Under the pieces are notes generated by a model that saw nothing but the letters and a program-made list of their open reading frames with translations, made no database searches and was not told where the DNA came from. Of a stretch of 64,000 nucleotides of DNA, positions 12,450 through 60,272 are shown one piece after another. The stretch spans positions 38-64,037 of the forward strand of contig CAVEYA010000067.1 in assembly GCA_963619935.1 (NCBI GenBank), in the 5' to 3' direction. The first letter of the stretch is position 1; the number at the start of each line of letters is the position of its first letter. This stretch comes from a bacterium (lineage in GTDB: Bacteria > Bacillota_I > Bacilli_A > RFN20 > CAG-826). The translations under genes were made by a program, and so were the position numbers.

Positions 12450-12480
12450 TAAAATAAAACCTATACTTAGTATAGGCTTA
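12450..12480 (-). terminator. Rho-independent terminator after the kinase gene
   Basis: CCTATAC-TTA-GTATAGG hairpin (12460-12476) with flanking T/A runs (bidirectional). Confidence 0.5.
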
Positions 12481-12972: not shown

Positions 12973-13009
12973 AACGGAATTATAATAGCAAATCTCTTTT
13001 TCTATTAAA

Positions 13010-13040
13010 AGAAAAAAACAAGGAATTTTCCTTGTCTTTT
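13010..13040 (-). terminator. Rho-independent terminator after the 13061-13450 gene
   Basis: ACAAGGA-ATTT-TCCTTGT hairpin with T-run in minus orientation. Confidence 0.5.
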
Positions 13041-13060
13041 ATTTGATTAAGAATATTTAA

Positions 13061-13450
13061 CTATTTAGCAAGCAAAGCCTCAACTTCTTCTTTAGTTAAA
13101 ACTTTATCTTTACTCACTTTGCGCATAGCTTTTTTGATATCTGCTTTGACCGCTCTTAAGAGAGATTCTTGTTCTTTACGAGCAGCAATTTTTCTCTTAG
13201 TGGCGTTTAAGAATGTTTCAGGAATATAATCGGAAATAATTTTCTTTCCTTCTCTCCATTGACGATAATAGTATGTATGTCCTGAAATTTGTTTAACAGA
13301 AATATAACCAACTGGTAAAGCTTTAATATTTTCTTCAATTTGTTCTTTTTCGTTCATTAATGCGAGCAATAACTCGGCTTGTCTTTGTTCTTGTTTCATA
13401 TCTATTAACCTACCGACTTTTATATTATTATAACAATATATTTTTTTCAA
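13061..13450 (-). CDS. hypothetical small basic protein (probable true start MKQEQRQ at about 13399)
   Basis: ORF only, flanked by its own terminators; no recognisable domain. Confidence 0.45.
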   Translation of the reverse strand: MKKIYCYNNIKVGRLIDMKQEQRQAELLLALMNEKEQIEENIKALPVGYISVKQISGHTYYYRQWREGKKIISDYIPETFLNATKRKIAARKEQESLLRAVKADIKKAMRKVSKDKVLTKEEVEALLAK

Positions 13451-13489
13451 TTAATAAATAATTAATTTTTTCTTTTAAAATGATGAGAA

Positions 13490-13521
13490 ACAAAAAAACG
13501 GATAGATTTCTCTACCCGTTA
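13490..13521 (-). terminator. Rho-independent terminator of nifJ
   Basis: AACGG...CCGTT hairpin (13497-13520) followed by T-run on the minus strand. Confidence 0.5.
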
Positions 13522-13538
13522 ATTTTGTGTTTTAGATA

Positions 13539-16500
13539 TTAAAGACCAAACTTTTTGATTCTATCAAGTCTATCTTTAGCGTATTTTTCCGCTTTAGTTA
13601 AGAGTTCTTCAGCGTGTTCTGGATTAACACGTGGAAGTTGAGAGAATCTTGTTTCTGTCATCACGAAATCTCTAAATTTGCTGTAATCAGGTTCTTGCAT
13701 ATCTAAGGTTAAGCATGGTTTACCTTGTTCCGCATTTCTTGGATCATAACGGAAGATTGGGAAGTAACCACATTCAACTGCGAGGCGTTCTTGTCTCATG
13801 GAGTTAGATAAGCCACCCTTAATACCATGGTTAGCACATGGAGCATAGCAGATAACTAATGATGGACCATCATAGCTTTCAGCTTCTTTTAAGGCTTTAA
13901 TTGCCGCAATTGGGTTTTTGCCTAAGGAGATTTGTGCAACATAGACATTACCATATGACATAGCAATTAAGGCTAAGTTCTTCTTCGCGGTAGTTTTACC
14001 ACTTGCGGTAAATTTGGCGATAGAACCTGTTTGTGAAGATTTGGAAGATTGACCACCGGTGTTGGAATAAACTTCGGTATCAAGGACTAAGATGTTAACA
14101 TCTTCTTCATTTGCGATAACGTGGTCTAATCCACCATAACCGATGTCGTATGCCCAACCATCACCACCAACAATCCAAATGGATTTATCTTGTAAATCTC
14201 TTTCGTAAGCAAGGACTTCTTTGACGCCTTCATCTTTACTAGCTTTCACTAAAGCCACTAAATCTTTAACGATTTGTCTACTTGCTTGACGGTTTTTAAT
14301 ATTGGCGAAGTATTCATCAATCTTAGCAGCTAATTCTGGTTCAACACCACGTTCTTTAGCAGCACTTAAGATTTCAATAATATGTTTAATCTTTGCGTTT
14401 GTGGCCACTCTCATACCATAACCGAATTCTGCGTTATCTTCGAATAAGGAGTTAGCCCAAGCAATACCTTGACCATCTTTATCAGTGCAGAATGGAGTTA
14501 ATGGAGTAGAACCACTATAGATGGATGAACATCCAGTTGCATTAGCAACTAACATATCTTTACCGAATAATTGGGAAACTAAACGGTAGTATGGGGTTTC
14601 ACCACATCCAGCACAAGCGCCAGAGATTTCCATATATGGCATTAAGAAACCAATACCTTTAACTGTTGCTTGTAAAGCAGTTGGTAATTTATCAGCTTTA
14701 TATGTGACATGTTTGAATAAGTAATTTGCGCCTTCTTCTTGTGGGAATTGAGATTTAGCTTCCACCATTTCAATGGCGTTTTTGCCAATCTTATTGGCGT
14801 TACATTCAACAACACATAAGCCACAACCGACACAGTTTCTTGGAGAAACTTGTAAACGGTATTTCATACCTGGAACACCGATAGCTGGTGAAACAGCTTC
14901 TTTTACAATAGCTGGTGCAGCTTCTAATTCTTTTTCGTCTAATAAGAATGGACGAATAGTAGCATGTGGACAGACAAACGCACAGTTATTACATTGAATA
15001 CATGCTTCTGGGTGCCATAATGGGACTTTATCAGCAATACTTCTCTTTTCTTGGAAAGTAATGTTGTTTCTCATTGTGCCATCGAGTAATTCATATTCAG
15101 TAAATTTACTGACTGGTAAGTCATCACCACCGAGGTTACCCATCACTGCGACATAACTATCGAAATAGTCATCGCCTGTTAATTTAGTTTCGGCTTTTGG
15201 TGATAAATTAGCCCATTCTGGATCAACTTTAACTTCTCTTAAGCCTTCAGTACCAGCGTCAATTGCCTTCCAGTTAAGTTCGACAACATCTTGGCCTTTC
15301 TTAGCATAAGATTTTTCAGCAAATTTCTTCATCCATTTATTTGCTTCATCATATGGCATAATGCCTTGATTTAAATAGAAGAAGGAAGCTTGGAGAATAG
15401 TATTTGTATGTCTACCCATACCAATTTCGCCAGCAATCTTATTTGCGTCGATAACATAGAACTTCGCATTCTTGGTGGCTAATTGATATTTAACACGGTT
15501 TGGCATGTTCTTGATTAATTCTTCATCAGACATGTCTGTATTAAGTAAGAAAGTACCGCCTTTCTTTAAATTCTTAACCATGTCGAACTTAAATAAATAA
15601 GTATCTAATGAGCAAGAGATAAAGTCAGCGTTTTGCACATAATATGTAGAATGAATTGGTGTTTTACCAAATCTTAAGTGTGAACGAGTAACACCACCAG
15701 CTTTACGAGAGTCGTAAGCGAAATACGCTTGTGCATATTGGTGAGTTGCGTCACCGATAATCTTAATAGATGATTTATTCGCGGAAACTGTACCATCACT
15801 ACCTAAACCATAGAATAAGCAAGATGTGTAGTCGCCTTTCACGTGATAATCATTATCCACTGGGATGCTTAAGTGAGTGACATCATCATTGATACCAACA
15901 GTGAAGCCATTCCAATGTTCACCCTTTAAGAAGTCATAAACAGCCTTCATATCTTTTGGTTGAGTATCTTTACTAGATAAACCATAACGGCCACCGATAA
16001 CTTCAACATCTAAGTTAGCTTCTTTAATTACTGCAACGACATCTTCATATAAAGGTTCGCCAGCAGCGCCCATTTCTTTTGTTCTATCTAAGACAGCGAT
16101 TTGTTTAACTGTCTTTGGTAAGACTGCTAATAAGTGTTTAGCAGAGAATGGACGATATAAGTGAACTTTGACTAAACCAATCTTTTCACCTTTTGCGGTT
16201 AAGTCATCGATTACTTCAGTAATTGTTTCAGTGACAGAGCCCATTGCGATGATTACTCTATCAGCGTCTTTGCTACCATAATATGTAAATGGAGCGTATT
16301 CACGTCCTGTTAAGCGAGTTGCTTCTTTGAAGTATTTACATGCCACTTCAAGAACTTCATCCGCTTTCTTATTTTGCGCTTCTCTACCTTGGAAATAGAC
16401 GTCGTCGTTTTCTGCACCACCGCGTGTAACTGGGTGAGTGTGTGGATTTAAAGCTCTTGCTCTAAATTCTTCGACTTTATCCATTCTTAATAACTTTTTC

Positions 16501-17281: not shown

Positions 17282-17782
17282 TTATTTTACAGAAAGAATT
17301 GTTGGTGAATAAGCTTCTCCGGTTGGGGATAAAGTTGCCTTTAAATATGGGATTTCATATGTGATTGCACCATCTTTAACAAACTTTTCTAAATAGCCTT
17401 TAACAACAACTGTTTTTCCTGCTAATGAATCTTGTGTGGTATAGTCACCAGTGACACTAGAATCCATAACACCGGAATAGATATAAACTGGTTGACTATC
17501 TGCTTTCATATGGTTTTGGAAATAGCAGTTATAGGAATTATGCTCAGAATTATATCTTGAATCACCTAATACACCTTGCACTGTATATTCCTTATCAGTA
17601 ATTCCGTTATCGTCTAATTTGCTAACGATTTCAATAAGTTGTTCAACAGTAATCGTGTCACCATAATTAGTAGAACCACCAGAGTTACCACCATTACCAC
17701 CTTGGTTATTGTTACCATTTCCACGTGTTGCACATCCCATCATTAAGAAAGCTAATAATGGTAAAGCGAATAATTTTTTCAT
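17282..17782 (-). CDS. OB-fold (BOF/YgiW-like) lipoprotein
   Basis: Signal peptide plus lipobox LMMGC; Gly/Asn-rich linker; OB-like core (YTVQGVL...VYIYSG...GKTVVVKGYL). Confidence 0.65.
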   Translation of the reverse strand: MKKLFALPLLAFLMMGCATRGNGNNNQGGNGGNSGGSTNYGDTITVEQLIEIVSKLDDNGITDKEYTVQGVLGDSRYNSEHNSYNCYFQNHMKADSQPVYIYSGVMDSSVTGDYTTQDSLAGKTVVVKGYLEKFVKDGAITYEIPYLKATLSPTGEAYSPTILSVK

Positions 17783-17849
17783 GTTTTTGTCTCCTAAATA
17801 ATCTTTTACTAGTGTATCAAATCTGTTTTTAAAAGTAAGGCATAAGAAA

Positions 17850-17868
17850 AAAGACCCATAGGGTCTAT
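17850..17868 (-). terminator. bidirectional hairpin terminator AGACCC-ATA-GGGTCT
   Basis: Perfect 6-bp GC-rich stem flanked by A-run and T-run; overlaps the stop codon of the 17865-18290 gene. Confidence 0.5.
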
Positions 17869-18290
17869 TTTTTATTTTTTCTTTTTGCCTGTTCTTCGTT
17901 AATCAGTTTCTTTAAGATTCTTAAATCATGGTCAGTTAATTCAACACTTTTATCAATCATCCCACCAATAGACATCTTACGATAAACAAAGTCATTTACA
18001 GATTCATAATCATGTAATTCTTTTTTAGTTACTGAAGTAGAACGATTAATTGGTGTTTTCTTTTCTTCCTGGACAATGATGTAATCTTTAATTTGTGGAA
18101 TTAATTCTAATAAGTTATATTCATAATCCATCACTAACATAGGATCAAAATAAGATAATGTATCCGTAATTACTTCTGGATAAATACCCACCATCTTAGA
18201 CAATCTTTCTGCGGTGACATATTTAAATTTAGTTTTGCTCATCGCATTTAAATATTTCTTTAATGTGGAAACTGAAGGTTTGTTATTCAT
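17865..18290 (-). CDS. hypothetical cytoplasmic protein (possible wHTH regulator)
   Basis: 141 aa, no signal peptide, Lys-rich C-terminus. Confidence 0.45.
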   Translation of the reverse strand: MNNKPSVSTLKKYLNAMSKTKFKYVTAERLSKMVGIYPEVITDTLSYFDPMLVMDYEYNLLELIPQIKDYIIVQEEKKTPINRSTSVTKKELHDYESVNDFVYRKMSIGGMIDKSVELTDHDLRILKKLINEEQAKRKNKK

Positions 18291-18325
18291 ATCAATACCT
18301 CATTAATATAACAAATTTAGAAGAA

Positions 18326-20599
18326 TTACGCAAAAGTATAGCCATTTTTAAAGGCTGCATAGAAAACATTTCTTGAGAAGAAATATCCTTTTGCGCTTTC
18401 AAGTACCCAATTAGTCTTATAGAAATCACCAACTGTAGAAGTACTGATAAAGCCTGATGAAGGCTTAGTAGTAATGCTTTGCAAACTACTTAAAGTAAAT
18501 GTTTCTATCTTCGTCATTTGATTTGGTGAATAAGCATAATTCCAAGAATCAGTAATCACATAATAAGTCTTAGAACTAGATATAGAAGAAGAACTTATAT
18601 CTGGATAATGAGCATAACTGCCACTTAGACATCTCGATGTTAAAATACTACCAGAAACACTCGCTATTGCGATATCGTTATCGAATGGTAATGATGTATA
18701 TACATCATCATATGTTACAGTGGTCCCACTTGTTGGTAATTCACTTCTAAACTGAGAACCATTCACCGCTAAAGTAACTGTATCATTAATGCCTAATGCT
18801 TTTAGTCTTGCATTTGCTGCATCCACAAAGTATTTGTAATATAAATCAGCGGTGTATTGGTATCCACTACTTTTATTAATACCACTAAAGTTAGTGGCTA
18901 AAACTGCATCAGGTGCACCATCGAGGACTACATCGTTATAGTAATTAAATAATTCTTCCGTTGGAGCGTCATCTTGATAATTTTTACTACCATAATTAGA
19001 AGAAGCAGACGCTAAACTAGGAGTGCCAATCGAAAATGAATTATTATCAAAATCATAGGTAATGCTTAATGAGCACACCATTTGGCCATAGCATCCCGCT
19101 TGAATATGGTACAAACCATCATTATTTGTATAAGAAGTATGAGTATGCCCTTCAAAAACAATATCAACATACCCCGATAACGCACTTGTCGTGTCTGCGT
19201 CTCCACTAGAATGGACCATATAAACAATAATATCCGCTCCATTAGCCTTTAATGCTTCACTTTCTTTTTTAACTAATTCAGTCGCTTCACTACCAGTTTT
19301 AAAAATGTAGTTGCCTTTAACTGAACTAGATATAGAACTATAACAATCACCCACTGAACCAATTAAGCCAATATTTACGCCATTCTTTTCTACAATCATG
19401 CTACTAGTTGAAAGAATATCAAGTTGCTCACTACCATCACTTGTATAGACATTTGTACATAAGGTAGGAAAACGATTATTGCTGATTGTTTCGCCTAATT
19501 GTTCAGTGCCCCAATCAAATTCATGATTTCCCACTATTTGAGCGTCAAAACCCACTTCATTCATCCAATTTGACATAGACACACCATAAGTCATGTTAGA
19601 CCACGCTGATCCTTGATATTGGTCACCACCGGATAATAACAAAGTGCCATCTGGATTATAAAATTCAGTCCATTTAAAGAAAGTGGATAATCTAGCAATG
19701 CCAGGCATTGAAGAATTAACATATTTAGCGTGTCCATGAATATCATTAATATAATTAATATCTATCTTAGTTTGACCGCTTCTAGTTGGCGCAACATAAG
19801 TTAAATCATTTTGATATTCAATCTTAATTGAATAAATAATAAAAGAACCAGCGGAAGCACATATACTAAAGAAAGTATTTTCCGTAGCGTCAGGTGTATA
19901 AGTATAAGTTTGACTACTTGTAATTGCTTCACCACCTTGAGCAGGTGATGTAATTAAAGAGTCTCTTGTTTTAAGTCTTAATTCTCCATATTGGCTCAAG
20001 CGGGCATAAGTAACAGTTATCGATTTTAATCCCGCAATCGCATCAACATTATTAATATAACCAGCGTTATCTATCTTAATATGAGCGTTACTAGTTTTGC
20101 TGACTCCATAGTAATAATAAGAATATTTACTATCAACTTTGTATGTACCACTTGTAGTAATACTACTAATCTCACTAGGAGTATTATTTTTATTTAAATT
20201 GATAACTGAAATATTACTTGGTAAATCGGACGCTTTATTTACTGTAACACTACAAATTGCCGACATATTCCCGTCTTTTGTAGTAACAATAATAGAAGCG
20301 CTACCTTCACTAACGCCTGTTACTAAGCCATTATTAACAGTAGCTACTTTTGTATTTGTACTAGACCAAAGTACTTCTTTATTAGTCGCGTTGCTAGGTA
20401 ATACTGTCGCATTCAATACATAGGTGTCACCAATTGATATATTTATAGAACTGTTACTAAGTTCTACACCGGTAACATTAATTACTTCTCCACTAGGATC
20501 AACGGTGGAACCATCATCTGTTTTATTTCCAAAAGTAAATGAACATCCACTTAAACCAAGAGTGAGTAATAAAGGGATAATGAATAGTTTCTTTTTCAT
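18326..20599 (-). CDS. surface lipoprotein: Big_2 domain + 5'-nucleotidase/metallophosphoesterase (UshA/CpdB-like)
   Basis: Lipobox LSGC; Big_2 (ATVNNGLVTGVSEGSASI); metallophosphatase motifs NDIHGH, GGDQYQGS, GNHEFDWG. Confidence 0.8.
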   Translation of the reverse strand: MKKKLFIIPLLLTLGLSGCSFTFGNKTDDGSTVDPSGEVINVTGVELSNSSINISIGDTYVLNATVLPSNATNKEVLWSSTNTKVATVNNGLVTGVSEGSASIIVTTKDGNMSAICSVTVNKASDLPSNISVINLNKNNTPSEISSITTSGTYKVDSKYSYYYYGVSKTSNAHIKIDNAGYINNVDAIAGLKSITVTYARLSQYGELRLKTRDSLITSPAQGGEAITSSQTYTYTPDATENTFFSICASAGSFIIYSIKIEYQNDLTYVAPTRSGQTKIDINYINDIHGHAKYVNSSMPGIARLSTFFKWTEFYNPDGTLLLSGGDQYQGSAWSNMTYGVSMSNWMNEVGFDAQIVGNHEFDWGTEQLGETISNNRFPTLCTNVYTSDGSEQLDILSTSSMIVEKNGVNIGLIGSVGDCYSSISSSVKGNYIFKTGSEATELVKKESEALKANGADIIVYMVHSSGDADTTSALSGYVDIVFEGHTHTSYTNNDGLYHIQAGCYGQMVCSLSITYDFDNNSFSIGTPSLASASSNYGSKNYQDDAPTEELFNYYNDVVLDGAPDAVLATNFSGINKSSGYQYTADLYYKYFVDAANARLKALGINDTVTLAVNGSQFRSELPTSGTTVTYDDVYTSLPFDNDIAIASVSGSILTSRCLSGSYAHYPDISSSSISSSKTYYVITDSWNYAYSPNQMTKIETFTLSSLQSITTKPSSGFISTSTVGDFYKTNWVLESAKGYFFSRNVFYAAFKNGYTFA

Positions 20600-20709
20600 A
20601 GAAAATCCTCAAACTTATAATACACTTATTTATAAAAATAAACATCTACACATTAGACAAATTTAACTATTATTTTTATTTGCATCAAAATTTTGCCGTA
20701 AATAAGAAC

Positions 20710-20742
20710 AAAAAAATAAAAACGCAACAGTTGCCTGTTACG
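20710..20742 (-). terminator. terminator downstream of tRNA-Lys
   Basis: GCAACAG-TTGC-CTGTTAC hairpin then T-run on the minus strand. Confidence 0.4.
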
Positions 20743-20754
20743 TATTTAGCAATT

Positions 20755-20830
20755 TGGTGATCCCTAAGGGATTCGAACCTTTGACCCACTGATTAAGAGT
20801 CAGTTGCTCTACCAGCTGAGCTAAGGGACC
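20755..20830 (-). tRNA. tRNA-Lys (anticodon CUU), CCA encoded
   Basis: Reverse complement folds as a cloverleaf: acceptor GGTCCCT/AGGGATC, D-arm GCTCAGCTGGTAGAGC, anticodon loop CTCTTAA, T-arm GGTTCGAATCC, 3' ACCA. Confidence 0.9.
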
Positions 20831-20988
20831 AGATGGATTGCTAGATTATAATATATTAAATAAAAATACATTTCAATAGAAAACAATATCAAAGTAAATA
20901 GGCAAAATAGGCTATTTCAAGCAACAAATAATAAAGAATGAATCTTTCACTTATAATAAAAAGATGCGCTCGGTAGCGCACCAATTTA

Positions 20989-22101
20989 TTATTTATAATA
21001 CTGATAAAATTTACTATCGAAGAACTTTGTTTGTTTTTCGCTAGTCGCGTCTACGATATTAGTTGTCCCTTTTTCGTAATAGTTTTTGCTTCTACCAGCA
21101 CCCACCATAGTCATATCATTTACACCATCAGTAGTGAATGTCATATCGCCATTAATACCATTCCAATAAACATTTGTGGTCGTTTTTTTAATTCTTCTCA
21201 CTGTTGATGAATTAGGATGATTTTGTTCACCATTACCACTACCTAACACTACTTGGTTAGGAGCGCATACGCTATCTAACATTGCCGTAGAAATGAAAAT
21301 CATTTCAGGTCTAGTCCAATCTAAGAAATCATATCCCATTGATGTTGAACTAGCGTGATGTGTTGCTTTTAATAAAATACGCTTATTCTCATCCTTAAAT
21401 AGTTTTTCATGATTAGCAATAATGGATTTTTCACCATATGTGGTATCAATATCACCACACATCACGATATTCCAATATTTATATTCAAGAACAAAGGATA
21501 CTGATGTGGTATTAGGATTGTCTGTTCCACATGATGAATTAGGAAATACATCATCATAGTAATAATCATTCTTAAGCCAACGTAATGTTAAATCATTATC
21601 TTTATCAATTTTTAATGTTTTGCCCACTTTCATTTGAGAAAGAACACTATTGTAGGTAGCACCACTATTTACCCAACTATTTCTTTTGTTAATGTATTGA
21701 TTCACATAACTAGAATTAGAAATATGATCCGTTCCACTAGTGTTATATGTATAACCATAATCCACTATTTGGTTAACTTTAAAATCATCTAACGCTCCCG
21801 CAATAATACCACCAATATGGTCACCATGTGGGTGAGTGACTACTAATAAATCAATTGTTTTATCAGTAATTTTATTCTTTAAAACTTCTTTTACATGACT
21901 CGCATCATCTCTACTACCAGAATCAACAACAATATCATAATTACCATATTGAATAAGTGTTGATTCACCATATTCGTCGCTCATTTCAATAGAAGTTAAT
22001 GTTAAAGGATTACCAGGTTCGTAATTAGTTTTCTTGCTTCCACAACCTATTAATGAAGTAGTTAGCAAAGAAAGGATAAGACCATATAATTTTATATTCA
22101 T
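20989..22101 (-). CDS. metallo-beta-lactamase-fold surface lipoprotein (probable nuclease/hydrolase)
   Basis: Lipobox LIGC; MBL motif LLVVTHPHGDHIGG. Confidence 0.75.
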   Translation of the reverse strand: MNIKLYGLILSLLTTSLIGCGSKKTNYEPGNPLTLTSIEMSDEYGESTLIQYGNYDIVVDSGSRDDASHVKEVLKNKITDKTIDLLVVTHPHGDHIGGIIAGALDDFKVNQIVDYGYTYNTSGTDHISNSSYVNQYINKRNSWVNSGATYNSVLSQMKVGKTLKIDKDNDLTLRWLKNDYYYDDVFPNSSCGTDNPNTTSVSFVLEYKYWNIVMCGDIDTTYGEKSIIANHEKLFKDENKRILLKATHHASSTSMGYDFLDWTRPEMIFISTAMLDSVCAPNQVVLGSGNGEQNHPNSSTVRRIKKTTTNVYWNGINGDMTFTTDGVNDMTMVGAGRSKNYYEKGTTNIVDATSEKQTKFFDSKFYQYYK

Positions 22102-22178
22102 AAAAATACCTCGAAATCATTATAACAAAAAAGAGTGTTCACGAGGAACACTCTTGATTGCAATATAATTACTTTCTT

Positions 22179-23621
22179 TTATTTAGCAACAGTGTAGACT
22201 TCAATTTTATTGACTCTGCATTGTTTGCCTAAAACAAACACTAAGGAAGTAGCTTCTGCATCTAAAATAATAGTAGCAGTTAAAGCTTCTGTATCTTGTG
22301 TGAATGAAGCACCTGTAAGTGTTGGTTCATTATCAGTTCCGCTAAATGAATATTTAGCACTATCATAGCTAATAACTACCTTTTTAAATGCAGCAGTATA
22401 GCTAATTGTGTCTTGAGAACCAGCATATAATCTAACAGATGTATAGGTTGATAACCATAAATTACAAGCAGTAGAAGATTTATTTTGTTCGTTAAGTAAT
22501 GTGACACCCTTATCTGAATAAGTAACACGTTTACTAGCAGAAATTTCATCATTAACTACCATATCAGTGTTTTTATTAAAGCTTAAAGTAGCAGCTAATG
22601 TGTAATTAGTAGCAGCAGCAGTAACTGTAACGTTGAATGTGGCAGAAACACCTTCTTTAGCAGTTGCGGTAATAACAACATCACCAGTAGCGACACCTGT
22701 AACTTTACCAGATGCAGAAACAGTAGCTTTAGTTTCATCAGAAGAAGACCAAGTAACTTTTTGTTTAGCTTCAGCTGGTGCAACAGTAGCGCTTAATTGT
22801 AAAGTTTCGTTAACTTTAACACTTGTTGCGTCACCTGCAGAAGTAACTGTAACGCCTGTTGGTTCAGCCCAGACTTTAGCTTCTGTAACTGTGTAAGAAG
22901 AGCCTTGACCTAAAACCATACGGCAGTTGCCACTTGATGTAGCGGCTAACATACCGACGATTTCTAATTTGTCGCCTTGATTGATTGTACCAGCTAAGTT
23001 AGCGATATCTTCGGCTGGGAGAAATTTTTCAACTTTGACAGCTAAAGCAGTATTAGCACTATCTGTCATTTTGAAATTCATGTATAAGTCACTTGATAAA
23101 GCAGTGGATGGAATTGTGTAGTCAGCATCAGCAACTAATTCAATCTTAGCTAATGTACCAGCATTTGCGTTTACAAGATTTGCTGGATCGCTAACAACGA
23201 CTGGATTAACTGTTTCGCCAACTTCAGCAATTGTTAAACATTTTGCATCAACATCATAACCATCAGGATAAGCTGTTAATTGAATAGAACCAGAATATGC
23301 GGATGATTGAGCATAGATTTCAACATATGAACCAAGTTTGTGTTCACCTAAATCTTCATTTCCGGTTTTTTCAGTATTTGTGTTGAAGTTATAGCAGTAT
23401 AAGAATTCACCATTACGGTAAATTGCAGTTGTGCTACCACTGTTCCAAACAACTGTTCCACGGACTTTGTAGTATTCACCGACTGTGCCGGCTTTTACTT
23501 GTGCGAATGTGGATTCGCCTTCAGTTAATTCCTCTTCCCAAGGTTTTACTTCCTTTTTGTTACCGCAACCTGTCAATAAGGCAACAGCAAGGAATGGTAA
23601 TAGAATAATTTTTTTATTCAT
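22179..23621 (-). CDS. surface lipoprotein with N-terminal OB-fold and Big_2 domain
   Basis: Lipobox LTGC; OB-like YKVRGTVVW...VEIYAQ; Big_2 KVTWSSSDETKATVSASGKVTGVATGDVVITA. Confidence 0.65.
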   Translation of the reverse strand: MNKKIILLPFLAVALLTGCGNKKEVKPWEEELTEGESTFAQVKAGTVGEYYKVRGTVVWNSGSTTAIYRNGEFLYCYNFNTNTEKTGNEDLGEHKLGSYVEIYAQSSAYSGSIQLTAYPDGYDVDAKCLTIAEVGETVNPVVVSDPANLVNANAGTLAKIELVADADYTIPSTALSSDLYMNFKMTDSANTALAVKVEKFLPAEDIANLAGTINQGDKLEIVGMLAATSSGNCRMVLGQGSSYTVTEAKVWAEPTGVTVTSAGDATSVKVNETLQLSATVAPAEAKQKVTWSSSDETKATVSASGKVTGVATGDVVITATAKEGVSATFNVTVTAAATNYTLAATLSFNKNTDMVVNDEISASKRVTYSDKGVTLLNEQNKSSTACNLWLSTYTSVRLYAGSQDTISYTAAFKKVVISYDSAKYSFSGTDNEPTLTGASFTQDTEALTATIILDAEATSLVFVLGKQCRVNKIEVYTVAK

Positions 23622-23789
23622 TATGAATTATTTCCTCCTTTTCTAATACCATGAATTTGTTCATAAATAATGATTAAAAACAAATAAATAATTATCGATA
23701 ACCTTACTTACATTGTTCTTATATTATTATTCATGTCCACTAATAGTTTCGCACAATTTATCACTTTATTAAATAAATATTTAAGAAAA

Positions 23790-23830
23790 TAAAAAAATAA
23801 CGGGACCCCGTTTTGGGATACCCGTTATTA
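23790..23830 (-). terminator. Rho-independent terminator after the 23844-25004 gene
   Basis: AATAACGGG(23797-23805)...CCCGTTATT(23821-23829) 9-bp stem, then T-run on the minus strand. Confidence 0.55.
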
Positions 23831-23843
23831 ATGTAGTTTATTA

Positions 23844-25004
23844 TTAGTCTGCTAATGAGAAGCAAGCTGTGCCTTTCACAGGAGCAAGGTATGGAGCGTT
23901 ATACCAGGTTAAGTGACCCGTAAAGTTCACTTTTGTGCTATCACATGTCCATGTGGCAAACATTGCTTGTAAAGCACTAAGTTCACCTAAATGGTAGGAT
24001 ATAGACATTCCAACTGAAGCACCAGTAGAATCTTTAAACCAAACATAAGTATGGCTGCTTAAAGTTGTATATTCATTAGTGTGTGTAGATGGAATAGTAG
24101 TATTAGAACCACCGATAGTAACAAATGTTAAGTTATTCATCTTTACTAAGGCACCATCTAATGTCTTTAAAGTGGTTTCGTTGAATGTACCAGCGGCAAT
24201 TTCAGTATAGTCAGGTTGGCTAACTGTGTATGGCTTGTTATCAACAAGCACTTCTGCAGCTGTAACTCTTCTCACAAGTGTTGGTTTAACTTCCATTAAA
24301 CCATTATATGGGCTAGCAAAGCCAGCCACTTGCACTAAATCACCAACTTTTAAGTTATATGTAGTCCAGCAATTACTTAATTTATTAGCATAGAGCATTA
24401 AGCCAGCCTTACCATCAGCGATGTAAACACCACTATATTCATGGTCTTCACCATGTGCACCACTAATATAACCATAAGTAATAATATTGTCAGATTCTTG
24501 AATAGTACCAGCGGCTAAACCTGCACGATAATCAGCAAGTTTATAAGTTGTACCAGTTAAAGTTGTTTTGTTCATGTAGGTGTGATATGTTAACTTGCCT
24601 TCAAATTTTTTCCATTTCATGGTTAAGGTAATATCTGAAGAATATTCATCTTCTGATGCGTACACACTATCAGGAACTAATAATACACGAGAAGTATCTT
24701 TTGAATAAGCAGATTTACTCCAGTGGCTATCAGAGAAAGACCAACTAATTTCTGGTTGTACAGTCGCATTTTTTCCTTTACGTCCAGGAACTGTGTAAGT
24801 ATATTTCTTGACAGCATTAAGAGAATCGCCACCTTCTAATTGTTTAGTGGTACCTGGTTCAAATAAACCACCGCTAGGATCAAGTAATAATGTGGAATCA
24901 CTGATCATTGTGTCAAAAATTTCTTGATCAGACATTCCGTTACTACCACAACCAGCTAATGAACAAACGATTAATGGTAATAAGAATAAATATTGTTTTT
25001 TCAT
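23844..25004 (-). CDS. surface lipoprotein with OB-fold-like domain
   Basis: Lipobox LAGC; OB-like YSGVYIADGKAGLMLYANK...VGDLVQVAGF. Confidence 0.55.
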   Translation of the reverse strand: MKKQYLFLLPLIVCSLAGCGSNGMSDQEIFDTMISDSTLLLDPSGGLFEPGTTKQLEGGDSLNAVKKYTYTVPGRKGKNATVQPEISWSFSDSHWSKSAYSKDTSRVLLVPDSVYASEDEYSSDITLTMKWKKFEGKLTYHTYMNKTTLTGTTYKLADYRAGLAAGTIQESDNIITYGYISGAHGEDHEYSGVYIADGKAGLMLYANKLSNCWTTYNLKVGDLVQVAGFASPYNGLMEVKPTLVRRVTAAEVLVDNKPYTVSQPDYTEIAAGTFNETTLKTLDGALVKMNNLTFVTIGGSNTTIPSTHTNEYTTLSSHTYVWFKDSTGASVGMSISYHLGELSALQAMFATWTCDSTKVNFTGHLTWYNAPYLAPVKGTACFSLAD

Positions 25005-25025: not shown

Positions 25026-26696
25026 TTATTTGTCTTGGATATAGTTATAGTTAGCGTAGTTATTCCCTAATTGAATTTGGAATTTTTCAAAATATCTAGC
25101 TAAATAACCTGTTACAGTGAAAGTCTTTCCCACTGGAGATTCACTACTGTTTACATCAAAAGCATCATCTGTACCAAATCTAGCAGGTGAAATATATGGG
25201 CTTAATGTTGCATCGATTCTTAAATTGGTAAGAATCTTAGCTCCATCTTTACCAGTGATATATGCATAAACTGTATAGGCTTTAGTGTCTGTACCTTGTT
25301 TATACCAATATTGTTCACCACTAGCTTTCCTTTGCATAACTGATTCTTGATCGTCATCAGTGCTGGTGGAAACTGCTCTGATGGTGACATCAACTTTCAC
25401 CCAGTTATATTGATAATTGAGTAAATCAGTGTAGTAGCATTCATCGGTTCTATTAGCAGGATCGATTGTACTGCCATCAATACTAACAGGAGTAATATCT
25501 TTATTTAAATCAGCATAAGTTAATTCACCAGATTGATATTTATGAGACCACTTAAGTGATTCTTTATAAGTATCAAAGTTAGTTTCAGTAAGAATGCGGA
25601 AAGCAGTCTTACCAGTAGAAGATGTCTTTAAGTCAGATAGTTGCACGTTACCGGAATAGGTAGTTGCACGACAATAGAATCTAACTACTAAGCCAACACC
25701 AGTTCCATCTCCACCATACTTTTTAGAAGCATTTTGTAATGTGGAACATAAAGCAGAGTTATAACCAGCATAAGCATATAAGCCAGTGTATTTAGCGCTT
25801 TCACCTTCGGCTGCGTATTGTTCTTCATCGATTAAGACATCTCTTAAGAACATATTATCGCCTTGAATACCAACTACTAAGGCAGTAACGATTAATTGAT
25901 AGCCAGAGCTACCTTCATCAGTAATACCAATTTCATCGTAGTGATGAATAATACCCCATAAGGAATATTCATAAGTTGTGGACTTGTAATCGTAATCAGT
26001 ATCTTCTTCACCATACACACGATAACCACACTTTTCCGCTTTTGCGGCAGCTTTTTCAAATGCTGAACGATAATTACAGATATGACTATCTAAGAAGTTT
26101 TGGTTTCTGGAATAACCTTGTTCAACTAATTCAAGGTTTAAATTTCTCCATTTAGATGAAGAATCTTTACGATACCAAATGAACGCTAACCAACGGTTAC
26201 CAGAACTATCTCTTTCGCCAAATACGTTCACATCAGTAATTAAAGCAATGTTATAAACAGTTTTACCAGTAGCAGCAGTTTCTTCATCTGCCTTTTCTTG
26301 GGCAGCTGTTAAAATTTTCTTGGTAAAATTGCTTGCTTTTTTACCCCAAGGTTCTACCTTTGCGGTAGATTCTGGAGTGTTAATCCCTAAGAAACGAGTT
26401 TTAATAGAGACTAAAGCTTTAGAAGCATCCACATAGCCAGCTTGTGTGAAGTTAGCAGTGTCACCATCAGTAACACTTCTTAAAGTTACATAACCATAAT
26501 GGTCTAATGTAGATGAATCACTACCAGCAAACTTTTTGCCTTCAAGAGAATCTTTTTGCGCAAAATCAAGTTTGTCAGTATATGGAGTATCGACTGGGTC
26601 GTCTCCGCTACGGACAGCGCATTTACCACTAGAATTACATCCAGTGAGAAGCATGCTTACCGCCGCCATTAAGAATAATAATTTTTTCATACGCAT
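25026..26696 (-). CDS. staphylococcal-nuclease (SNase/thermonuclease)-like lipoprotein nuclease with C-terminal extension
   Basis: Lipobox LTGC; SNase motifs VTDGDTANF and RFLGINTPES; 556 aa. Confidence 0.7.
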   Translation of the reverse strand: MRMKKLLFLMAAVSMLLTGCNSSGKCAVRSGDDPVDTPYTDKLDFAQKDSLEGKKFAGSDSSTLDHYGYVTLRSVTDGDTANFTQAGYVDASKALVSIKTRFLGINTPESTAKVEPWGKKASNFTKKILTAAQEKADEETAATGKTVYNIALITDVNVFGERDSSGNRWLAFIWYRKDSSSKWRNLNLELVEQGYSRNQNFLDSHICNYRSAFEKAAAKAEKCGYRVYGEEDTDYDYKSTTYEYSLWGIIHHYDEIGITDEGSSGYQLIVTALVVGIQGDNMFLRDVLIDEEQYAAEGESAKYTGLYAYAGYNSALCSTLQNASKKYGGDGTGVGLVVRFYCRATTYSGNVQLSDLKTSSTGKTAFRILTETNFDTYKESLKWSHKYQSGELTYADLNKDITPVSIDGSTIDPANRTDECYYTDLLNYQYNWVKVDVTIRAVSTSTDDDQESVMQRKASGEQYWYKQGTDTKAYTVYAYITGKDGAKILTNLRIDATLSPYISPARFGTDDAFDVNSSESPVGKTFTVTGYLARYFEKFQIQLGNNYANYNYIQDK

Positions 26697-26707: not shown

Positions 26708-28318
26708 TTATTTCTTAATATAATCAGAAAGTTTTTTCAAAACATCGTTAATGGCTTCTTGTGGGGTTTTACCTTCTAAGAAGACATAGCCAGGAATGGA
26801 AGCAACTTCTGTACGAATAGAAGCAGAACCAGCGAATGGTTGATCGACGAATTTTGTCCAATTTTCACTTTCTTTAACATAGTAATCAACGTTAATCTTC
26901 GCTGTTTGTCCTTTAATACTTTCCGCCTCATTAGCAGAAGAATAAGAATCTTCTAACCAAGTCCTATAATCGACATAGTCCTCAGTTACGCCTTCCCACA
27001 TGCCACCATTTTCAGCATAAGAACAAGATGGGTAATAAGAAGTTTGACTACATAAGTAACCATTCGCGTACTTGGTTAAGAATTTTAAAAGCATCCAAGA
27101 AGCTAATCTTTCTTTTTGGCTACCTTTATCTAATAAGGCTAAGTTAGCACCTTGAGAAATAACATACTTGTTTTCTTTGTCCACATAAGGAACTGGAGCA
27201 GCTTTAATTTCAAAAGCGTTACCAGCAGGTGCGGAGTTAGCGACACCAGCGGATGAACCTAATGTCATAACTGTCTTAGAGGCTTTAAATGGATTAGAAC
27301 CATATTTTGCTTCACCCCAGTCACTTGGAATGCCAAATGTATTGTTATCATACATCGCTTTTAAACGATTAAGGCCATTAATGGTTTCTTGACTATTAAA
27401 GGAGACATAACCATGTCTATCTTCTTTATCATAATAGGTATATTCACCACCATTTTGTCTCACAGTGGTAATAAATAAGTTTGCTTGAGAGTCATAAGAG
27501 AATGGCTTAAAGCATTCTTTTTTAGCGTGTCCTTCACTACCCCATTCAAAAACACCGGTTAAATTTAAGACAATGTCATCAGTGTTTGTAGGAGCCTTTT
27601 TAGTCACGCTACCATCCTTTAATAAATAATTATCGTAGACACCCTTTGTCTTTAATAAATTAAGAATTTCTAAACCAACACCATTGAGTTCATCATAAGT
27701 GGCAGGAACATAGATTTTGTTCTTTAAATCTTCTTGGTTAGCACACCAATCAAAGAAAGTGGAGTTATAAATCAATACTTCAGTAGATTTGTTAAATGGA
27801 ACACCTAATGTATAAGGATTACCATCATTATCAAATTCAATGGATTGATTTTCTTTCATGTAGTCAGAGTAGAAATCAGAAATTTTAAAGGATTCACCTT
27901 CCGGTTCAAACACACTATGAACATCATTTTCGAAATAATAATTTAAACGAACAATAATGTCTTGATTCACATAACTTGCAAAGTGGTCAGGATAGCCAAC
28001 AATTAAGTTTGGATATTTGCCAGATGTTGCCGCTAATGTGGTAGCGTTTAAAACGTTATCATATGAACCTTTTGATTCATATCTCACCTTAACACCAGTT
28101 AAAGCGGTAAATTCATCTAAAAGAGGTTCAAGTGCTTCATTAATTGAACTACCAAATCCGGTCCAAAATTCAATTGTTGTGCCACTAACATCAGCAGTAA
28201 AGTCAATATCATAAGCAAAATTATTTCTCCAGCTAGCCTTACAGGCTGAGGTCGCAACCGCGACCCCACCTAATAAGCTCACAGCTAGAACGGATGGAAT
28301 GATTTTATTTGTTTTCAT
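26708..28318 (-). CDS. ABC transporter substrate-binding lipoprotein (large, CUT1/MalE-like), paralog 1
   Basis: Lipobox ATSAC; 536 aa; clear paralog of 28343-29908 (shared FWTGFGSS, GYPDHFA, VISQGANLAL). Confidence 0.7.
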   Translation of the reverse strand: MKTNKIIPSVLAVSLLGGVAVATSACKASWRNNFAYDIDFTADVSGTTIEFWTGFGSSINEALEPLLDEFTALTGVKVRYESKGSYDNVLNATTLAATSGKYPNLIVGYPDHFASYVNQDIIVRLNYYFENDVHSVFEPEGESFKISDFYSDYMKENQSIEFDNDGNPYTLGVPFNKSTEVLIYNSTFFDWCANQEDLKNKIYVPATYDELNGVGLEILNLLKTKGVYDNYLLKDGSVTKKAPTNTDDIVLNLTGVFEWGSEGHAKKECFKPFSYDSQANLFITTVRQNGGEYTYYDKEDRHGYVSFNSQETINGLNRLKAMYDNNTFGIPSDWGEAKYGSNPFKASKTVMTLGSSAGVANSAPAGNAFEIKAAPVPYVDKENKYVISQGANLALLDKGSQKERLASWMLLKFLTKYANGYLCSQTSYYPSCSYAENGGMWEGVTEDYVDYRTWLEDSYSSANEAESIKGQTAKINVDYYVKESENWTKFVDQPFAGSASIRTEVASIPGYVFLEGKTPQEAINDVLKKLSDYIKK

Positions 28319-28342
28319 TGATCATATCCTTTCTAAGCGTAA

Positions 28343-29908
28343 TTACGCTTTCACGTAGTCAGTAATCTTTCTATAAACAGCATCAAGAATAGCTTGGTCG
28401 TCGTTATTATATTCGCCAGCAAAGATATATCCTGGGATATAGCCAATTTCAGTACGAACAGAAGAAGAACCACGGAAGCCTGGATCAACGAATTTACTCC
28501 AAGATTCAGTAGCATAAACTTGAGAGTTAATCTTTGCGGATTCTTGTTGTAATATTGCGTTTCCATCAAATGAATCATTTAAGTATTCTTGATATTCATC
28601 AGAATTATAAGCATAGTTACATGTTGGGAAATAACCTGTACCAGCAGCGAATGCACCGTTGGCTTGTTGAGATAAGTAAACGATTAATTTCCATGCAGCA
28701 ACTTTTTGTTTTTCAGTACCCTTATTGAATAAGGCAAGGTTAGTGCCTTGAGAAATAACATATGCTTTTGTTAAGTCTTTTTGTGGAACTTGTGCGGCTT
28801 TTGTGGTGAATGTTGTACCAACAACATTGCTTAAACCACCAGTAGAGCCAACATTTAATAAGGATTGACCATTCTTAAATGGGTTAGAACAATAAGATTC
28901 TTCACCAAATGTCGCAGCAATACCAATTAAACCATTGTTCCATAAGTCACGTAACATACCCATTGCTTCTAAGGTCTTTTCTTTATTACCTTCATCATTA
29001 AAGACAGCGTAACCTTTACCAGTATTTGTGGTATCGACTTCGGTATATGTACCACCATATTGTCTTACTAATGAAATGAATAAGTTTTCTGTAGAGTCAT
29101 AAGAGAAGAAATGGAAATTTTCTTCAGTAACAGCAGAACCATCATAAACAACAGTTGTGTTAGCGGCAGTAGCAGCATCAGTTGTGTCATAAACATTACC
29201 ATCAGCGCCTAAGTATTTGCCATAAACACCTTTGGCTTTGAATAATTGTTTAACTGCTAAACCAACAGACTTAACTTCAGCCCATGTTTTTGGAACAAAG
29301 ATATCAGTTGTGGCAGTAGCAGCCCATTCAAAGAAGTTACTGTTATAACACATAACTTCAGAAGATTTATTAAATGGTAAACCTAAGACATAGCCTGTAC
29401 CATCTTCTTTAAATTCTAATGTTTCGTTTTCAGTTAAATAGTCTGTATAGAAATCACTATAATTTAAAACTTTAAGTCCATTAGCGTCTAAACCATCAGC
29501 TTTTTCACGTTTATGATCATTTTCAATAAGACCATCTAAACGGAGCTGAATATTACTGGTAATGTAACCAGCAAAGTGATCTGGATAACCAACCGCTACA
29601 TTTGCGTATTCTTTCTTTGTAGCAGATAAGTTAATTGCAGTTTGAAGATTGGAATAACCACCTTTGGTTTCATATTCCACGGTGATACCTGTCTTTGTCT
29701 CAAAATCATCGATAAGTGTTTCAAGAGTTTCATTAACTGAAGAACCAAAACCTGTCCAGAATGAGATTGTTGTTCCTCTTGTGTCAACTGTGACATCAAG
29801 GTCATATGTGTCAGCGGAGCCTAAACCGCCGGTTTGACAAGCTGACATACCTAATGTTGCAATTAAGCAAACAGGAGCAAGGATTGATAAAAGCTTTTTA
29901 CTTTTCAT
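28343..29908 (-). CDS. ABC transporter substrate-binding lipoprotein, paralog 2
   Basis: Lipobox GMSAC; 521 aa. Confidence 0.7.
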   Translation of the reverse strand: MKSKKLLSILAPVCLIATLGMSACQTGGLGSADTYDLDVTVDTRGTTISFWTGFGSSVNETLETLIDDFETKTGITVEYETKGGYSNLQTAINLSATKKEYANVAVGYPDHFAGYITSNIQLRLDGLIENDHKREKADGLDANGLKVLNYSDFYTDYLTENETLEFKEDGTGYVLGLPFNKSSEVMCYNSNFFEWAATATTDIFVPKTWAEVKSVGLAVKQLFKAKGVYGKYLGADGNVYDTTDAATAANTTVVYDGSAVTEENFHFFSYDSTENLFISLVRQYGGTYTEVDTTNTGKGYAVFNDEGNKEKTLEAMGMLRDLWNNGLIGIAATFGEESYCSNPFKNGQSLLNVGSTGGLSNVVGTTFTTKAAQVPQKDLTKAYVISQGTNLALFNKGTEKQKVAAWKLIVYLSQQANGAFAAGTGYFPTCNYAYNSDEYQEYLNDSFDGNAILQQESAKINSQVYATESWSKFVDPGFRGSSSVRTEIGYIPGYIFAGEYNNDDQAILDAVYRKITDYVKA

Positions 29909-29926
29909 AATTGTTTGTCCTTTCTT

Positions 29927-58979: not shown

Positions 58980-60272
58980 ATGAAAAAATATCTTACTTTA
59001 ATTTTAACAGCTGCTTGTTTAGCAACTTTAGTGGGTTGCCGTTTTAATGATGGTAGTTCTCATAACGGTGGTTCTTCAGATTCCGGTGATAAAGATGATG
59101 GAGGAGATACACCAACACCAGTCGGTGATACAGTTACCTTTAACCAAAGAAGTTCATCGGCAAAGGATTCCACTATCAAAGCCATGCTAAATGAATGTGG
59201 CAAAGCTTCTAATAAGAAAACCTTATATCGTATTAAAGGCATCGCTCAATGGCCAAAAAGTACAAACTACGGAAACTTTGATTTATTAGACTCATCAGGC
59301 TATGTGTATGTTTATGGTTGTTCCAAAAATGCATCTTCAATCACTGGTTCATCTGGCTCATATGCATTTAACAATGATAAAACTTTTTCTGGTATGTCAA
59401 TAAAACCAGGTGATGAAGTGGAAATGGAAGGCTTATTTACTTGGTACGCTTATTCTAGTGGCTACGGAGTCGCGGAATTTCAAGGTTACGTTACAACTGT
59501 AAAACACAATAACTTATCAAATATTGAAGCAAAGAGTTACACAACCAGTGAACCAACTAATCAAGCTGGAACATATTATTCTTCCATTAGTGATTCGGAA
59601 AGCGGTTCTACATTATTAACCACACTTCATAATTTAATGGATAGTACACATGATACATATACTTCTTATAATTCATTAGATAAATATTTTAAAACATCTG
59701 ATAAGCATTCTTCTGGTAATGTAAAATGTTTCTATTCTGGTAAAAGTACATCTTCATTTAATAAAGAACATGTTTGGCCACAATCAAGTTCTGGTACATC
59801 AAGTGATCAATTATATGGCACTTCTTATGGCGGATCTGATTTACATCATATTAGACCAACAATTAGTTCTTACAATTCCGCTCGTGGAAGTTCCATGTTC
59901 GGCCCTATCTTTGGTGATAAGACAAGCGCTGGTGCATTAGCGTATTCCACCGGTGGTAGTAACTATTATACTGGTAATGTCTATGAACCTGCAGATGCCA
60001 TTAAAGGGGATGTTGCAAGGATAATTATGTATATGTATGTTCACTATTCCAGCCAAATTGGTGGTGCGTCACAATCTTATTATGGCGAAATGCACATCAA
60101 TTATGTGATGGGAACCTCCCCACAAAATTCTTGGAAACTATTAAGAAAATGGAACGCGGAAGATCCTGTTAGCGAAGATGAAATAACACGTAACAATTAC
60201 GCTTATTCAATTCAAGGAAATCGAAATCCATTTATAGACCATCCAACATACGCAGACCGTATTTGGGGCTAA
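58980..60272 (+). CDS. surface lipoprotein: N-terminal OB-fold + C-terminal endonuclease I (EndA/Vvn family) domain
   Basis: Lipobox LVGC; OB-like YRIKGIAQW...YVYVYG; Endonuclease_1 motifs NKEHVWPQSS and DLHHIRPT...N..RG. Confidence 0.65.
   Translation: MKKYLTLILTAACLATLVGCRFNDGSSHNGGSSDSGDKDDGGDTPTPVGDTVTFNQRSSSAKDSTIKAMLNECGKASNKKTLYRIKGIAQWPKSTNYGNFDLLDSSGYVYVYGCSKNASSITGSSGSYAFNNDKTFSGMSIKPGDEVEMEGLFTWYAYSSGYGVAEFQGYVTTVKHNNLSNIEAKSYTTSEPTNQAGTYYSSISDSESGSTLLTTLHNLMDSTHDTYTSYNSLDKYFKTSDKHSSGNVKCFYSGKSTSSFNKEHVWPQSSSGTSSDQLYGTSYGGSDLHHIRPTISSYNSARGSSMFGPIFGDKTSAGALAYSTGGSNYYTGNVYEPADAIKGDVARIIMYMYVHYSSQIGGASQSYYGEMHINYVMGTSPQNSWKLLRKWNAEDPVSEDEITRNNYAYSIQGNRNPFIDHPTYADRIWG

Follow-up and report, generated by a model that had tools for sequence, protein, structure and literature searches.

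A 64,000-nucleotide stretch of DNA from a member of the Bacilli (GTDB lineage Bacillota_I; Bacilli_A; RFN20; CAG-826; assembly GCA_963619935.1, contig CAVEYA010000067.1, positions 38 to 64,037) – referred to here as the window, with a G+C content of 35% – contains a minus-strand gene run that ends with the genes of four lipoproteins, here called D, C, B and A, interspersed with other genes; a fifth lipoprotein, E, is encoded elsewhere in the window on the plus strand. An earlier note on this DNA had described a recurrent module of the oligonucleotide/oligosaccharide-binding (OB) fold, of the BOF kind, in at least five lipoproteins. Here, we compare these proteins with one another and with their relatives, and propose that all five carry diverged OB domains of the nucleic-acid type and belong to a conserved surface DNA-scavenging system of uncultured rumen Bacilli, a reading that we regard as rather probable. 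The five genes and their parts (aa, amino-acid positions), with the methods that place them – including AlphaFold2 (AF2) modelling – are as follows.

17282-17782, minus strand: lipoprotein A, 166 aa, last gene of the run
17732..17782, minus strand: signal peptide and lipobox of A (MKKLFALPLLAFLMMG followed by C; from sequence)
17285..17659, minus strand: A-type OB module, aa 42-166 of A (AF2, Foldseek, phmmer, Pfam matches of relatives)
22179-23621, minus strand: lipoprotein B, containing Big_2 (Pfam)
23217..23546, minus strand: B1, candidate OB module, aa 26-135 of B (hhalign against D1)
22875..23234, minus strand: B2, uncertain candidate module, aa 130-249 of B (weak profile match to D aa 400-556)
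22182..22859, minus strand: rest of B, with Big_2 (aa 255-327) and a domain Bc (aa 335-480), neither of them an OB module
23844-25004, minus strand: lipoprotein C, with a weak DUF5689 match (Pfam)
24546..24929, minus strand: Cn, N-terminal domain of C, aa 26-153, in all C orthologues; no OB module
24249..24539, minus strand: C1, putative OB module, aa 156-252 of C, first half of the DUF5689-like region
23850..24221, minus strand: C2, doubtful module, aa 262-385 of C, second half of the DUF5689-like region
25026-26696, minus strand: lipoprotein D, with an SNase domain (Pfam)
25992..26519, minus strand: SNase domain, aa ~60-235 of D, the catalytic partner (Pfam SNase E 2.8e-10, aa 100-222)
25560..25964, minus strand: D1, candidate OB module, aa 245-379 of D, first after SNase (hhalign against B1)
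25032..25499, minus strand: D2, candidate OB module, aa 400-555 of D, second after SNase (hhalign against A)
58980-60272, plus strand: lipoprotein E, endonuclease I
59127..59507, plus strand: En, OB module, aa 50-176 of E, N-terminal to the endonuclease I domain (AF2, Foldseek, hhalign)
59559..60269, plus strand: endonuclease I catalytic domain, aa 194-430 of E (Pfam Endonuclease_1 E 1.5e-38)

All five reading frames are present as the earlier note described, and each starts with a lipobox signal peptide (..LMMGC in A, ..LLTGC in B, ..SLAGC in C, ..LLTGC in D and ..TLVGC in E); by this N-terminal lipobox, with its invariant Cys, A, B, C, D and E are predicted bacterial lipoproteins. The placement of the modules given there needs correction, with two candidates in each of B and D, and one supported (C1) and one doubtful (C2) in C. 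Moreover, the span 17282-25004 assigned to the recurrence also takes in three module-free genes (17865-18290, 18326-20599 and 20989-22101); OB hidden Markov models (HMMs) had no match in the products of the second and third of these, a 5'-nucleotidase and a metallo-beta-lactamase (MBL) hydrolase.

The signal peptide of A is followed by a disordered linker, rich in G, N and S and extending to aa ~40, and pLDDT (predicted local distance difference test score) is below 70 for aa 1-40. The remainder (aa 41-166, pLDDT 98) is modelled by AF2 as a helix-capped five-strand OB barrel, in the order short strand, helix, beta1 (66-78), beta2 (83-88), beta3 (99-106), beta4 (124-136), beta5 (139-144) and a closing strand (161-165). 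When this model is compared with PDB structures by Foldseek, the N-terminal OB of LysRS leads (E 1.4e-4, probability 1.0), with further matches to potempin A, Ten1, RPA32/14, Cdc13 OB1, Mycoplasma SSB and RMI2. For E the model has a mean pLDDT of 90, with 92-98 per 10-residue block within En, whose elements are a helix (66-73), beta1 (78-89), beta2 (99-104), beta3 (107-115), a hairpin, a helix (136-139), beta4 (146-159) and beta5 (162-176). Its Foldseek matches in PDB are Vvn and Vibrio cholerae EndoI, then the N-terminal OB folds of LysRS, AspRS and AsnRS, YgiW (1nnx) and the MCM N-terminal OB. These confident models and their OB-fold matches identify A and En as predicted OB folds of the order b1-b2-b3-(helix)-b4-b5. 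E combines an OB fold with a nuclease catalytic domain on one exported polypeptide, both confident within the single AF2 model, and residues E263, H264, W266, N299 and R302 are invariant in 96 E homologues.

A three-part motif had been put forward as common to the five proteins ([YF]x[VI]xG, hYhY and Gxxhxhx[GA], h being hydrophobic), and its parts correspond to strands beta1, beta3 and beta4. It is found in A (aa 66-129) and E (aa 83-151) and in a looser form in B (aa 51-117), and is degenerate in C and D; it is absent from every other window protein (50 proteins of at least 120 aa), and shuffled proteins gave a mean of 0.03 hits. BLASTP among the five lipoproteins found nothing significant beyond the signal peptides, and any relationship is therefore remote. 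Profiles were compared with hhalign, using family alignments of 120 homologues for E and 27 for B, and of sequences from 21 related loci for C and D, with 31 metagenome loci added for D; because signal peptides contaminated whole-protein hhalign comparisons, excised domains were used with the signal peptides removed.

Three pairs of excised domains match at 81-91% probability: A with C aa 155-262 (91%, score 40.0, E 9e-7), A with E aa 45-185 (81%, score 35.6), and B aa 25-135 with D aa 245-380 (82%, score 36.2, 92 columns in register, with the D family extended). The weaker matches still span the full domain length, and comprise C1 with D1 (20%, score 25.3, 88 columns in register), A with D2 (21%, score 25.6, 93 columns), B2 with D2 (16%, score 25.0, 93 columns), C1 with En (16%, score 24.0) and B1 with En (5%, score 20.6); B1 also matches C1 weakly (score 18.5). 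None of the ~85 control comparisons – ~55 with reversed profiles and ~30 with unrelated beta-rich domains (Big_2, SNase, Cn and Bc) – exceeded 17.7. A target-decoy test of HMMs against sequences recovered the same network, including a reciprocal match of B1 and D1, though lack of independence among the members of a family inflates its p-values. The modules align in register at beta1 (YTVQG / IITYG / YRIKG / YKVRG), at beta3 (VYIYS / LMLYA / VYVYG / LYCYN / LYAYA) and across beta4-beta5 (GKTVVVKGYLEKF..TYEI / GDLVQVAGFASPYNGLMEV / GDEVEMEGLFTWY..AEF / GSYVEIYAQSSAYSGSIQL / GLVVRFYCRATTYSGNVQL). By the profile matches, A, C1 and En share a genuine though remote OB module, and B1 and D1 are a second related pair, probably of the same superfamily. 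The claimed recurrence in five lipoproteins thus stands within these two groups, and the links from B and D to A, C and E are weak. The copies in the window are deeply diverged subfamilies and not recent duplicates.

In lipoprotein C, C1 is well supported as an OB barrel because of its match to the modelled A, together with weak PF01336 and DUF5689 matches. Its candidate strand segments are IITYGYISG, YSGVYIAD, GLMLYAN and VGDLVQVAGFASPYNGLMEV; the A-module HMM finds C and 14 orthologues in the corresponding position, and the C1 HMM in turn matches 48 domains of A-family proteins. The DUF5689 (PF18942) match of C (E 1.4e-5) covers aa 157-370 and profile positions 7-205 of 217. Twelve C-family proteins were scanned, of which three match DUF5689 at E<=0.1 (best 1.6e-6) and seven match PF01336 weakly (best 0.0049); a C profile had no meaningful match among PDB sequences. 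From these scores C is a distant DUF5689 relative rather than a curated member. C2 has very weak profile links to the OB modules (score 18.0 against En), and could be the second OB of a HIN-like tandem, by analogy with the published likeness of the DUF5689 protein DdbD to p202 HIN. Cn had no match to OB profiles; it is weakly related to Big_2 sequences, beating decoys, and is also present in A-module proteins such as P0144, and it may be an Ig-like stalk.

The OB fold is probable for B and D from their profile matches. The candidate strand segments of B1 are YYKVRGTVVW, FLYCYNF and LGSYVEIYAQSSAYSGSIQL, and those of D1 are YQLIVTALVVGIQG, NMFLRDV, GLYAYAG and VGLVVRFYCRATTYSGNVQL; the last strands of D2 are VGKTFTVTGYLARYFEKFQIQL. 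The A-module HMM gives consistent matches at aa ~480-555 of D and its orthologues, and PF01336 is found in 3 of 15 D C-terminal segments (best E 0.0047). A profile of the D C-terminus had no meaningful match among PDB sequences. The nuclease part of D resembles the NCBIfam thermonuclease NucI (E 8e-11, under its cut-off); on the probable reading of D1 and D2 as OB folds, D would be an OB-nuclease fusion. The OB-fold claim of the earlier note accordingly rests on modelling and fold comparison in A and E and on homology in C1, and is probable in B and D. The Big_2 domain of B is clear (Pfam E 1.1e-15). The beta-rich Bc (22182-22619) has no match in Pfam or to any OB profile, and it recurs in the related locus L001, twice in a 5'-nucleotidase-like protein of the related locus L005, and in the A-module proteins P0186 and P0183; some B homologues have two copies. 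It seems to be one more surface domain that is mobile and uncatalogued.

Relatives of A were collected by exhaustive phmmer/HMMER searching instead of a word-indexed search, which gave only one. At E<=1e-3 the family has 162 representative proteins (representatives at 50% identity), in which the region corresponding to aa ~42-165 of A is a discrete ~120-residue domain, of which each protein has 1 to 16 copies; a lipobox-like N-terminus is present in 98 of 151 A-module proteins. Among 62 A-type segments, Pfam matched 16 to PF01336 (best 3.9e-7), 13 to tRNA_anti_2, 5 to DUF5689 and 3 to tRNA_anti-like. Such matches occur in relatives; the window proteins A, B, C, D and E themselves have no PF01336 match at E<=1. 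In the 96 E homologues Pfam found Endonuclease_1 alone, with no family over En, and NCBIfam has no name for A, B or C. The member-by-member Pfam scans thus place the modules, by sequence, as divergent relatives of the PF01336/YhcR-type nucleic-acid-binding OB folds rather than BOF proteins, with A-type and E-type subfamilies that are captured by no existing Pfam model. The A family conserves aromatic residues at positions 77, 81, 87, 102 and 134 and Lys at 69, 133 and 136, and from the secondary structure these would sit on the canonical OB ligand face (L12, beta2, beta3 and beta4/L45).

Related loci, 21 in number, were found in metagenome-assembled genomes (MAGs) from rumen and anaerobic digesters labelled Bacilli or Erysipelotrichaceae, and their architectures were read with HMMs of each domain. 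The order SBP2-SBP1-[SNase-D1-D2], in which SBP denotes a substrate-binding lipoprotein, is fixed in all 21; D is directly followed by a [Cn-C1-C2] gene in 15, and 15 also have the MBL gene. The next slot is variable, and is occupied by B1-B2-Big2-Bc (in the window and L020), Big2-A-Big2-A-Big2, NT5-Big2-A, A-NT5 or Big2-En-Big2-En-Big2, NT5 being the 5'-nucleotidase. The best 120 of ~1,700 E homologues nearly all have an E-type module, and include 100 with the architecture En-EndoI, 13 with A-En-EndoI, 3 with Big2-A-En-EndoI and 2 with En-En-EndoI. A-type modules occur alone, in tandem arrays of up to 16, and as A-NT5, A-EndoI, EndoI-Big2-A-Big2, C1-A-A and Cn-C1-...-A; Pfam scans of 81 full-length A-module proteins also found Endonuclease_1, 5'-nucleotidase, DUF5689 and the ComEC-associated DUF4131. 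The suggestion that a cassette has been shuffled onto different partners is upheld by these relatives, in which A-type and E-type modules are joined to EndoI, NT5, DUF5689-like proteins and Big_2 arrays, and on their architectures both module types are evolutionarily mobile.

The family also includes giant metagenomic proteins – P0130 (2157 aa), P0148 (1583 aa) and P0155 (1373 aa) – with 9 to 16 tandem A-type modules. A more distant locus, L021 (positions 9971-13782 of a MAG labelled Lachnospiraceae), encodes a 478-aa SNase lipoprotein lacking D1 and D2 and, next to it, a protein of 782 aa in which there are two C1-type OB modules; an endonuclease I gene is close by, and the locus seems to combine the same parts in another arrangement.

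The other genes of the run (all minus strand), which include an ATP-binding cassette (ABC) transporter, are as follows.

34956-36140, minus strand: tuf (EF-Tu), head of the run from 36140 to 17282
33631-34845, minus strand: RDD-family membrane protein, 404 aa, between tuf and the ABC ATPase
31982-33607, minus strand: ABC ATPase (Pfam)
30863-31957 and 29927-30847, minus strand: two permeases (Pfam)
28343-29908 and 26708-28318, minus strand: two paralogous substrate-binding lipoproteins (SBPs; Pfam)
20989-22101, minus strand: MBL-fold hydrolase lipoprotein (Pfam and NCBIfam)
18326-20599, minus strand: lipoprotein with Big_2 and a metallophosphoesterase/5'-nucleotidase (Pfam and NCBIfam)
17865-18290, minus strand: 141-aa protein, between the 5'-nucleotidase gene and A

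The ABC importer (26708-33607, minus strand) lies directly upstream of D in the same orientation, with gaps of 11 nucleotides between SBP1 and D and 21 nucleotides between D and C, and terminator-like hairpins are located 3' of C (a weak one), B, the MBL gene, the 141-aa gene and A. These gaps and hairpin positions point to probable co-transcription of the transporter with D and C, and to a probably monocistronic A. C is adjoined in the locus by the SNase, MBL hydrolase and 5'-nucleotidase lipoproteins. The RDD-family gene (33631-34845) heads the transporter run and is preceded by a terminator-like hairpin 3' of tuf. The two tandem SBPs, which match each other with a single-sequence profile E of ~1e-124, serve one ABC importer.

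Three further features of the run are recorded here. The MBL lipoprotein weakly resembles, over aa 45-286, the C-terminal MBL domain of ComEC/Rec2 (TIGR00361 E 4.5e-6), and could be a stand-alone surface version of this DNA-processing domain. The 141-aa protein (17865-18290) has no signal peptide and is weakly like the N-terminal, DNA-binding winged helix of the redox repressor Rex (NCBIfam E 1e-5, far under the cut-off), the Rossmann domain of Rex being absent; in 9 related loci its gene is kept in the same position before a pyruvate:ferredoxin oxidoreductase (PFOR) gene, and it may be a regulator of the locus or of the PFOR gene. The plus strand has, antisense to the 5'-nucleotidase and B genes, reading frames of 80-94 aa at 20139-20423, 20424-20666 and 22633-22896; their translations are of low complexity, and in all likelihood they are not real genes.

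The precedent of OB-nuclease proteins, the ties of DUF5689 to DNA, and the mollicute operons that pair nucleases with ABC transporters (all described below) lead us to propose the modules as handles that capture DNA or oligonucleotides. Lipid-anchored OB modules would bind these substrates at the cell surface, in stand-alone or accessory form in A, B and C, and fused to a nuclease in D (SNase plus two modules) and E (one module plus endonuclease I). Held in this way, the substrate would lie beside the nucleases, the MBL hydrolase and the 5'-nucleotidase, whose products would go to the two substrate-binding lipoproteins and the ABC importer. Both the binding of DNA or another ligand and the feeding role are inferred from family membership and gene context.

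Several results tell against this proposal. Cross-group links from {B1, D1} and {B2, D2} to {A, C1, En} have hhalign probabilities of 16-21%, and merging the profiles (A+C1+En against B1+D1 or B2+D2) lowered the scores to 18-21 and the probabilities to 2-6%, presumably because MAFFT misaligns such divergent families. The N-terminus of B finds nothing credible in Pfam (18 segments) and no meaningful PDB sequence match; C, at 25.5 bits, is under the DUF5689 gathering cut-off of 28.6; and one SBP is only weakly like UgpB, a glycerol-3-phosphate binder (E 2.7e-7), which bears on the importer substrate. The modules are also mostly acidic, with isoelectric points (pI) of 4.6 in A, 4.5 in B1, 4.3 in B2, 5.6 in C1, 4.7 in D1 and 4.6 in D2 and a median of 4.59 in the A family, and En alone is basic (8.6); acidity is atypical for DNA-binding OB domains, and leaves room for cation-bridged binding, for another ligand or for a spacer role. 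The blank searches with B and the weak cross-group links would fit a narrower kinship in which only A, C1 and En share the module, the likeness of B and D is a generic beta-rich pattern, and B1/B2 and D1/D2 form a separate and unrelated two-domain unit; the A-module HMM, moreover, has no match in B and reaches D only at E ~6e-3 over 40 residues. We nonetheless think this unlikely, as the cross-group alignments keep 87-100 columns in strand register and score 23-26 against at most 17.7 in the controls, the C1 HMM scores B1 and D1 sequences above reversed decoys, some D C-terminal segments match PF01336, and the slot of B is taken in related loci by Big2-A-Big2-A proteins. Membership of the BOF family (YgiW, PF04076), as the earlier note had it, is highly improbable. 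YgiW 1nnx is a Foldseek match of E (E 1.8e-3, TM 0.61 on the target), and A is small, stand-alone and exported like YgiW; but for E 1nnx comes 18th, after endonuclease I and LysRS, and it is not among the best 50 fold matches of A, and PF04076 is matched by none of 62 A segments, 96 E homologues, or 12 C, 15 D and 18 B sequences, and PF01336, tRNA_anti_2, tRNA_anti-like and DUF5689 are matched instead. The BOF assignment has therefore been dropped.

A further alternative accepts the OB folds and denies them nucleic acid: they would bind another ligand (an oligosaccharide, a protein partner or a cell-surface component) or act as rigid spacers that keep catalytic domains off the membrane, as the interleaved Big_2 domains may. 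Acidity in six of the seven modules scored and in the A family at large suits such a role, as do the frequent interleaving of A-type modules with Big_2 and their long arrays, in the style of adhesin stalks, the presence of potempin A – an OB-like protease inhibitor – among the fold matches of A, and the many A-module proteins that have no recognisable nuclease domain. Set against these, the Pfam families matched are all nucleic-acid-binding OB families, the direct fusion partners are nucleases and nucleotidases and nucleases are central to the locus, DUF5689 proteins are genetically linked to DNA uptake or utilisation, and the A family keeps its aromatic and Lys positions; we judge a role apart from nucleic acids to have a small chance of being right. 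If the modules do bind DNA, as we propose, the cluster would define extracellular DNA harvest by uncultured rumen Bacilli. For annotation, the work would name at least two uncatalogued OB subfamilies, for want of which hundreds of metagenomic lipoproteins are at present unannotated. The result refines annotation and ecology, and reveals no new mechanism.

DdbD, a DUF5689 protein of the ddbABCDEF DNA-utilisation locus in Bacteroides thetaiotaomicron, has a model that resembles the tandem OB of p202 HIN, which binds double-stranded DNA, and has been proposed as the DNA-binding partner of a transporter. Another DUF5689 protein, RA0C_RS04920 of Riemerella anatipestifer, is needed for natural transformation. 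C is like DdbD in being a lipoprotein, in its DUF5689 match at aa 157-370, and in its conserved locus with secreted nucleases and a transporter adjoining, and differs from both proteins in its host (Bacilli rather than Bacteroidota), its extra N-terminal domain and its score below the DUF5689 cut-off. The locus has no DdbC-like TonB-dependent receptor, and the ABC importer with two binding lipoproteins stands in its place. It is conceivable, and we suggest it tentatively and at less than even confidence, that the system is the Bacilli counterpart of the Bacteroidales ddb locus, in which lipid-anchored OB 'DNA hooks', made up of the A-type and E-type modules (up to 16 on a giant surface protein) and a DUF5689-like protein, would capture extracellular DNA and pass it to SNase, EndoI, MBL and 5'-nucleotidase enzymes and then to a dedicated ABC importer, and the acidic modules would bind through divalent cations or aromatic stacking rather than bulk charge. 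DNA binding by the modules would extend the DUF5689/ddb idea from Bacteroidota to Bacilli, with an ABC importer replacing the TonB-dependent transporter.

The class IIb anticodon-binding OB of LysRS, AspRS and AsnRS (PF01336) is the best fold match of both models, down to the N-terminal helix in front of the barrel. The likeness is one of fold and superfamily only, at 12-17% identity, and location, partners and presumed ligand (DNA versus the tRNA anticodon loop) differ. With BOF/YgiW the modules have the OB superfamily in common, and YgiW is small and exported like A; there is no sequence-family match.

SNase lipoproteins of the mhp379/MGA_0676 type are surface nucleases of mollicutes, and MslA is an accessory polynucleotide-binding lipoprotein. 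Mycoplasma nuclease genes lie in operons with ABC transporter genes for nucleotide acquisition. The window shares with these operons an SNase-family lipoprotein gene beside an ABC importer in the same orientation; a mycoplasma review makes no mention of OB folds.

The closest functional precedents are extracellular, surface-retained nucleases in which a PF01336-type OB is fused to a catalytic domain: YhcR of Bacillus subtilis, ExeM/Xds of Shewanella and Vibrio, and SWAN of Streptococcus sanguinis. ExeM is inactive as a nuclease when its YhcR-like region of two OB folds is missing, and OBs of this kind are also found in YhcR and SWAN. The window differs from this group in splitting the activities over separate lipoproteins, in having the D modules C-terminal to SNase and the E module N-terminal to endonuclease I – a nuclease class other than the EEP/DNase I domains of ExeM and SWAN – in being anchored through a lipobox and not through sortase or rhombosortase signals, and in proteins too diverged to match PF01336. 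YhcR itself unites OB folds, SNase and 5'-nucleotidase on one polypeptide, and these are activities found in this locus. The joining of OB folds to extracellular nucleases is already established by YhcR, ExeM and SWAN; what is new here is the uncatalogued subfamilies, and a Bacilli locus in which they accompany an ABC importer.

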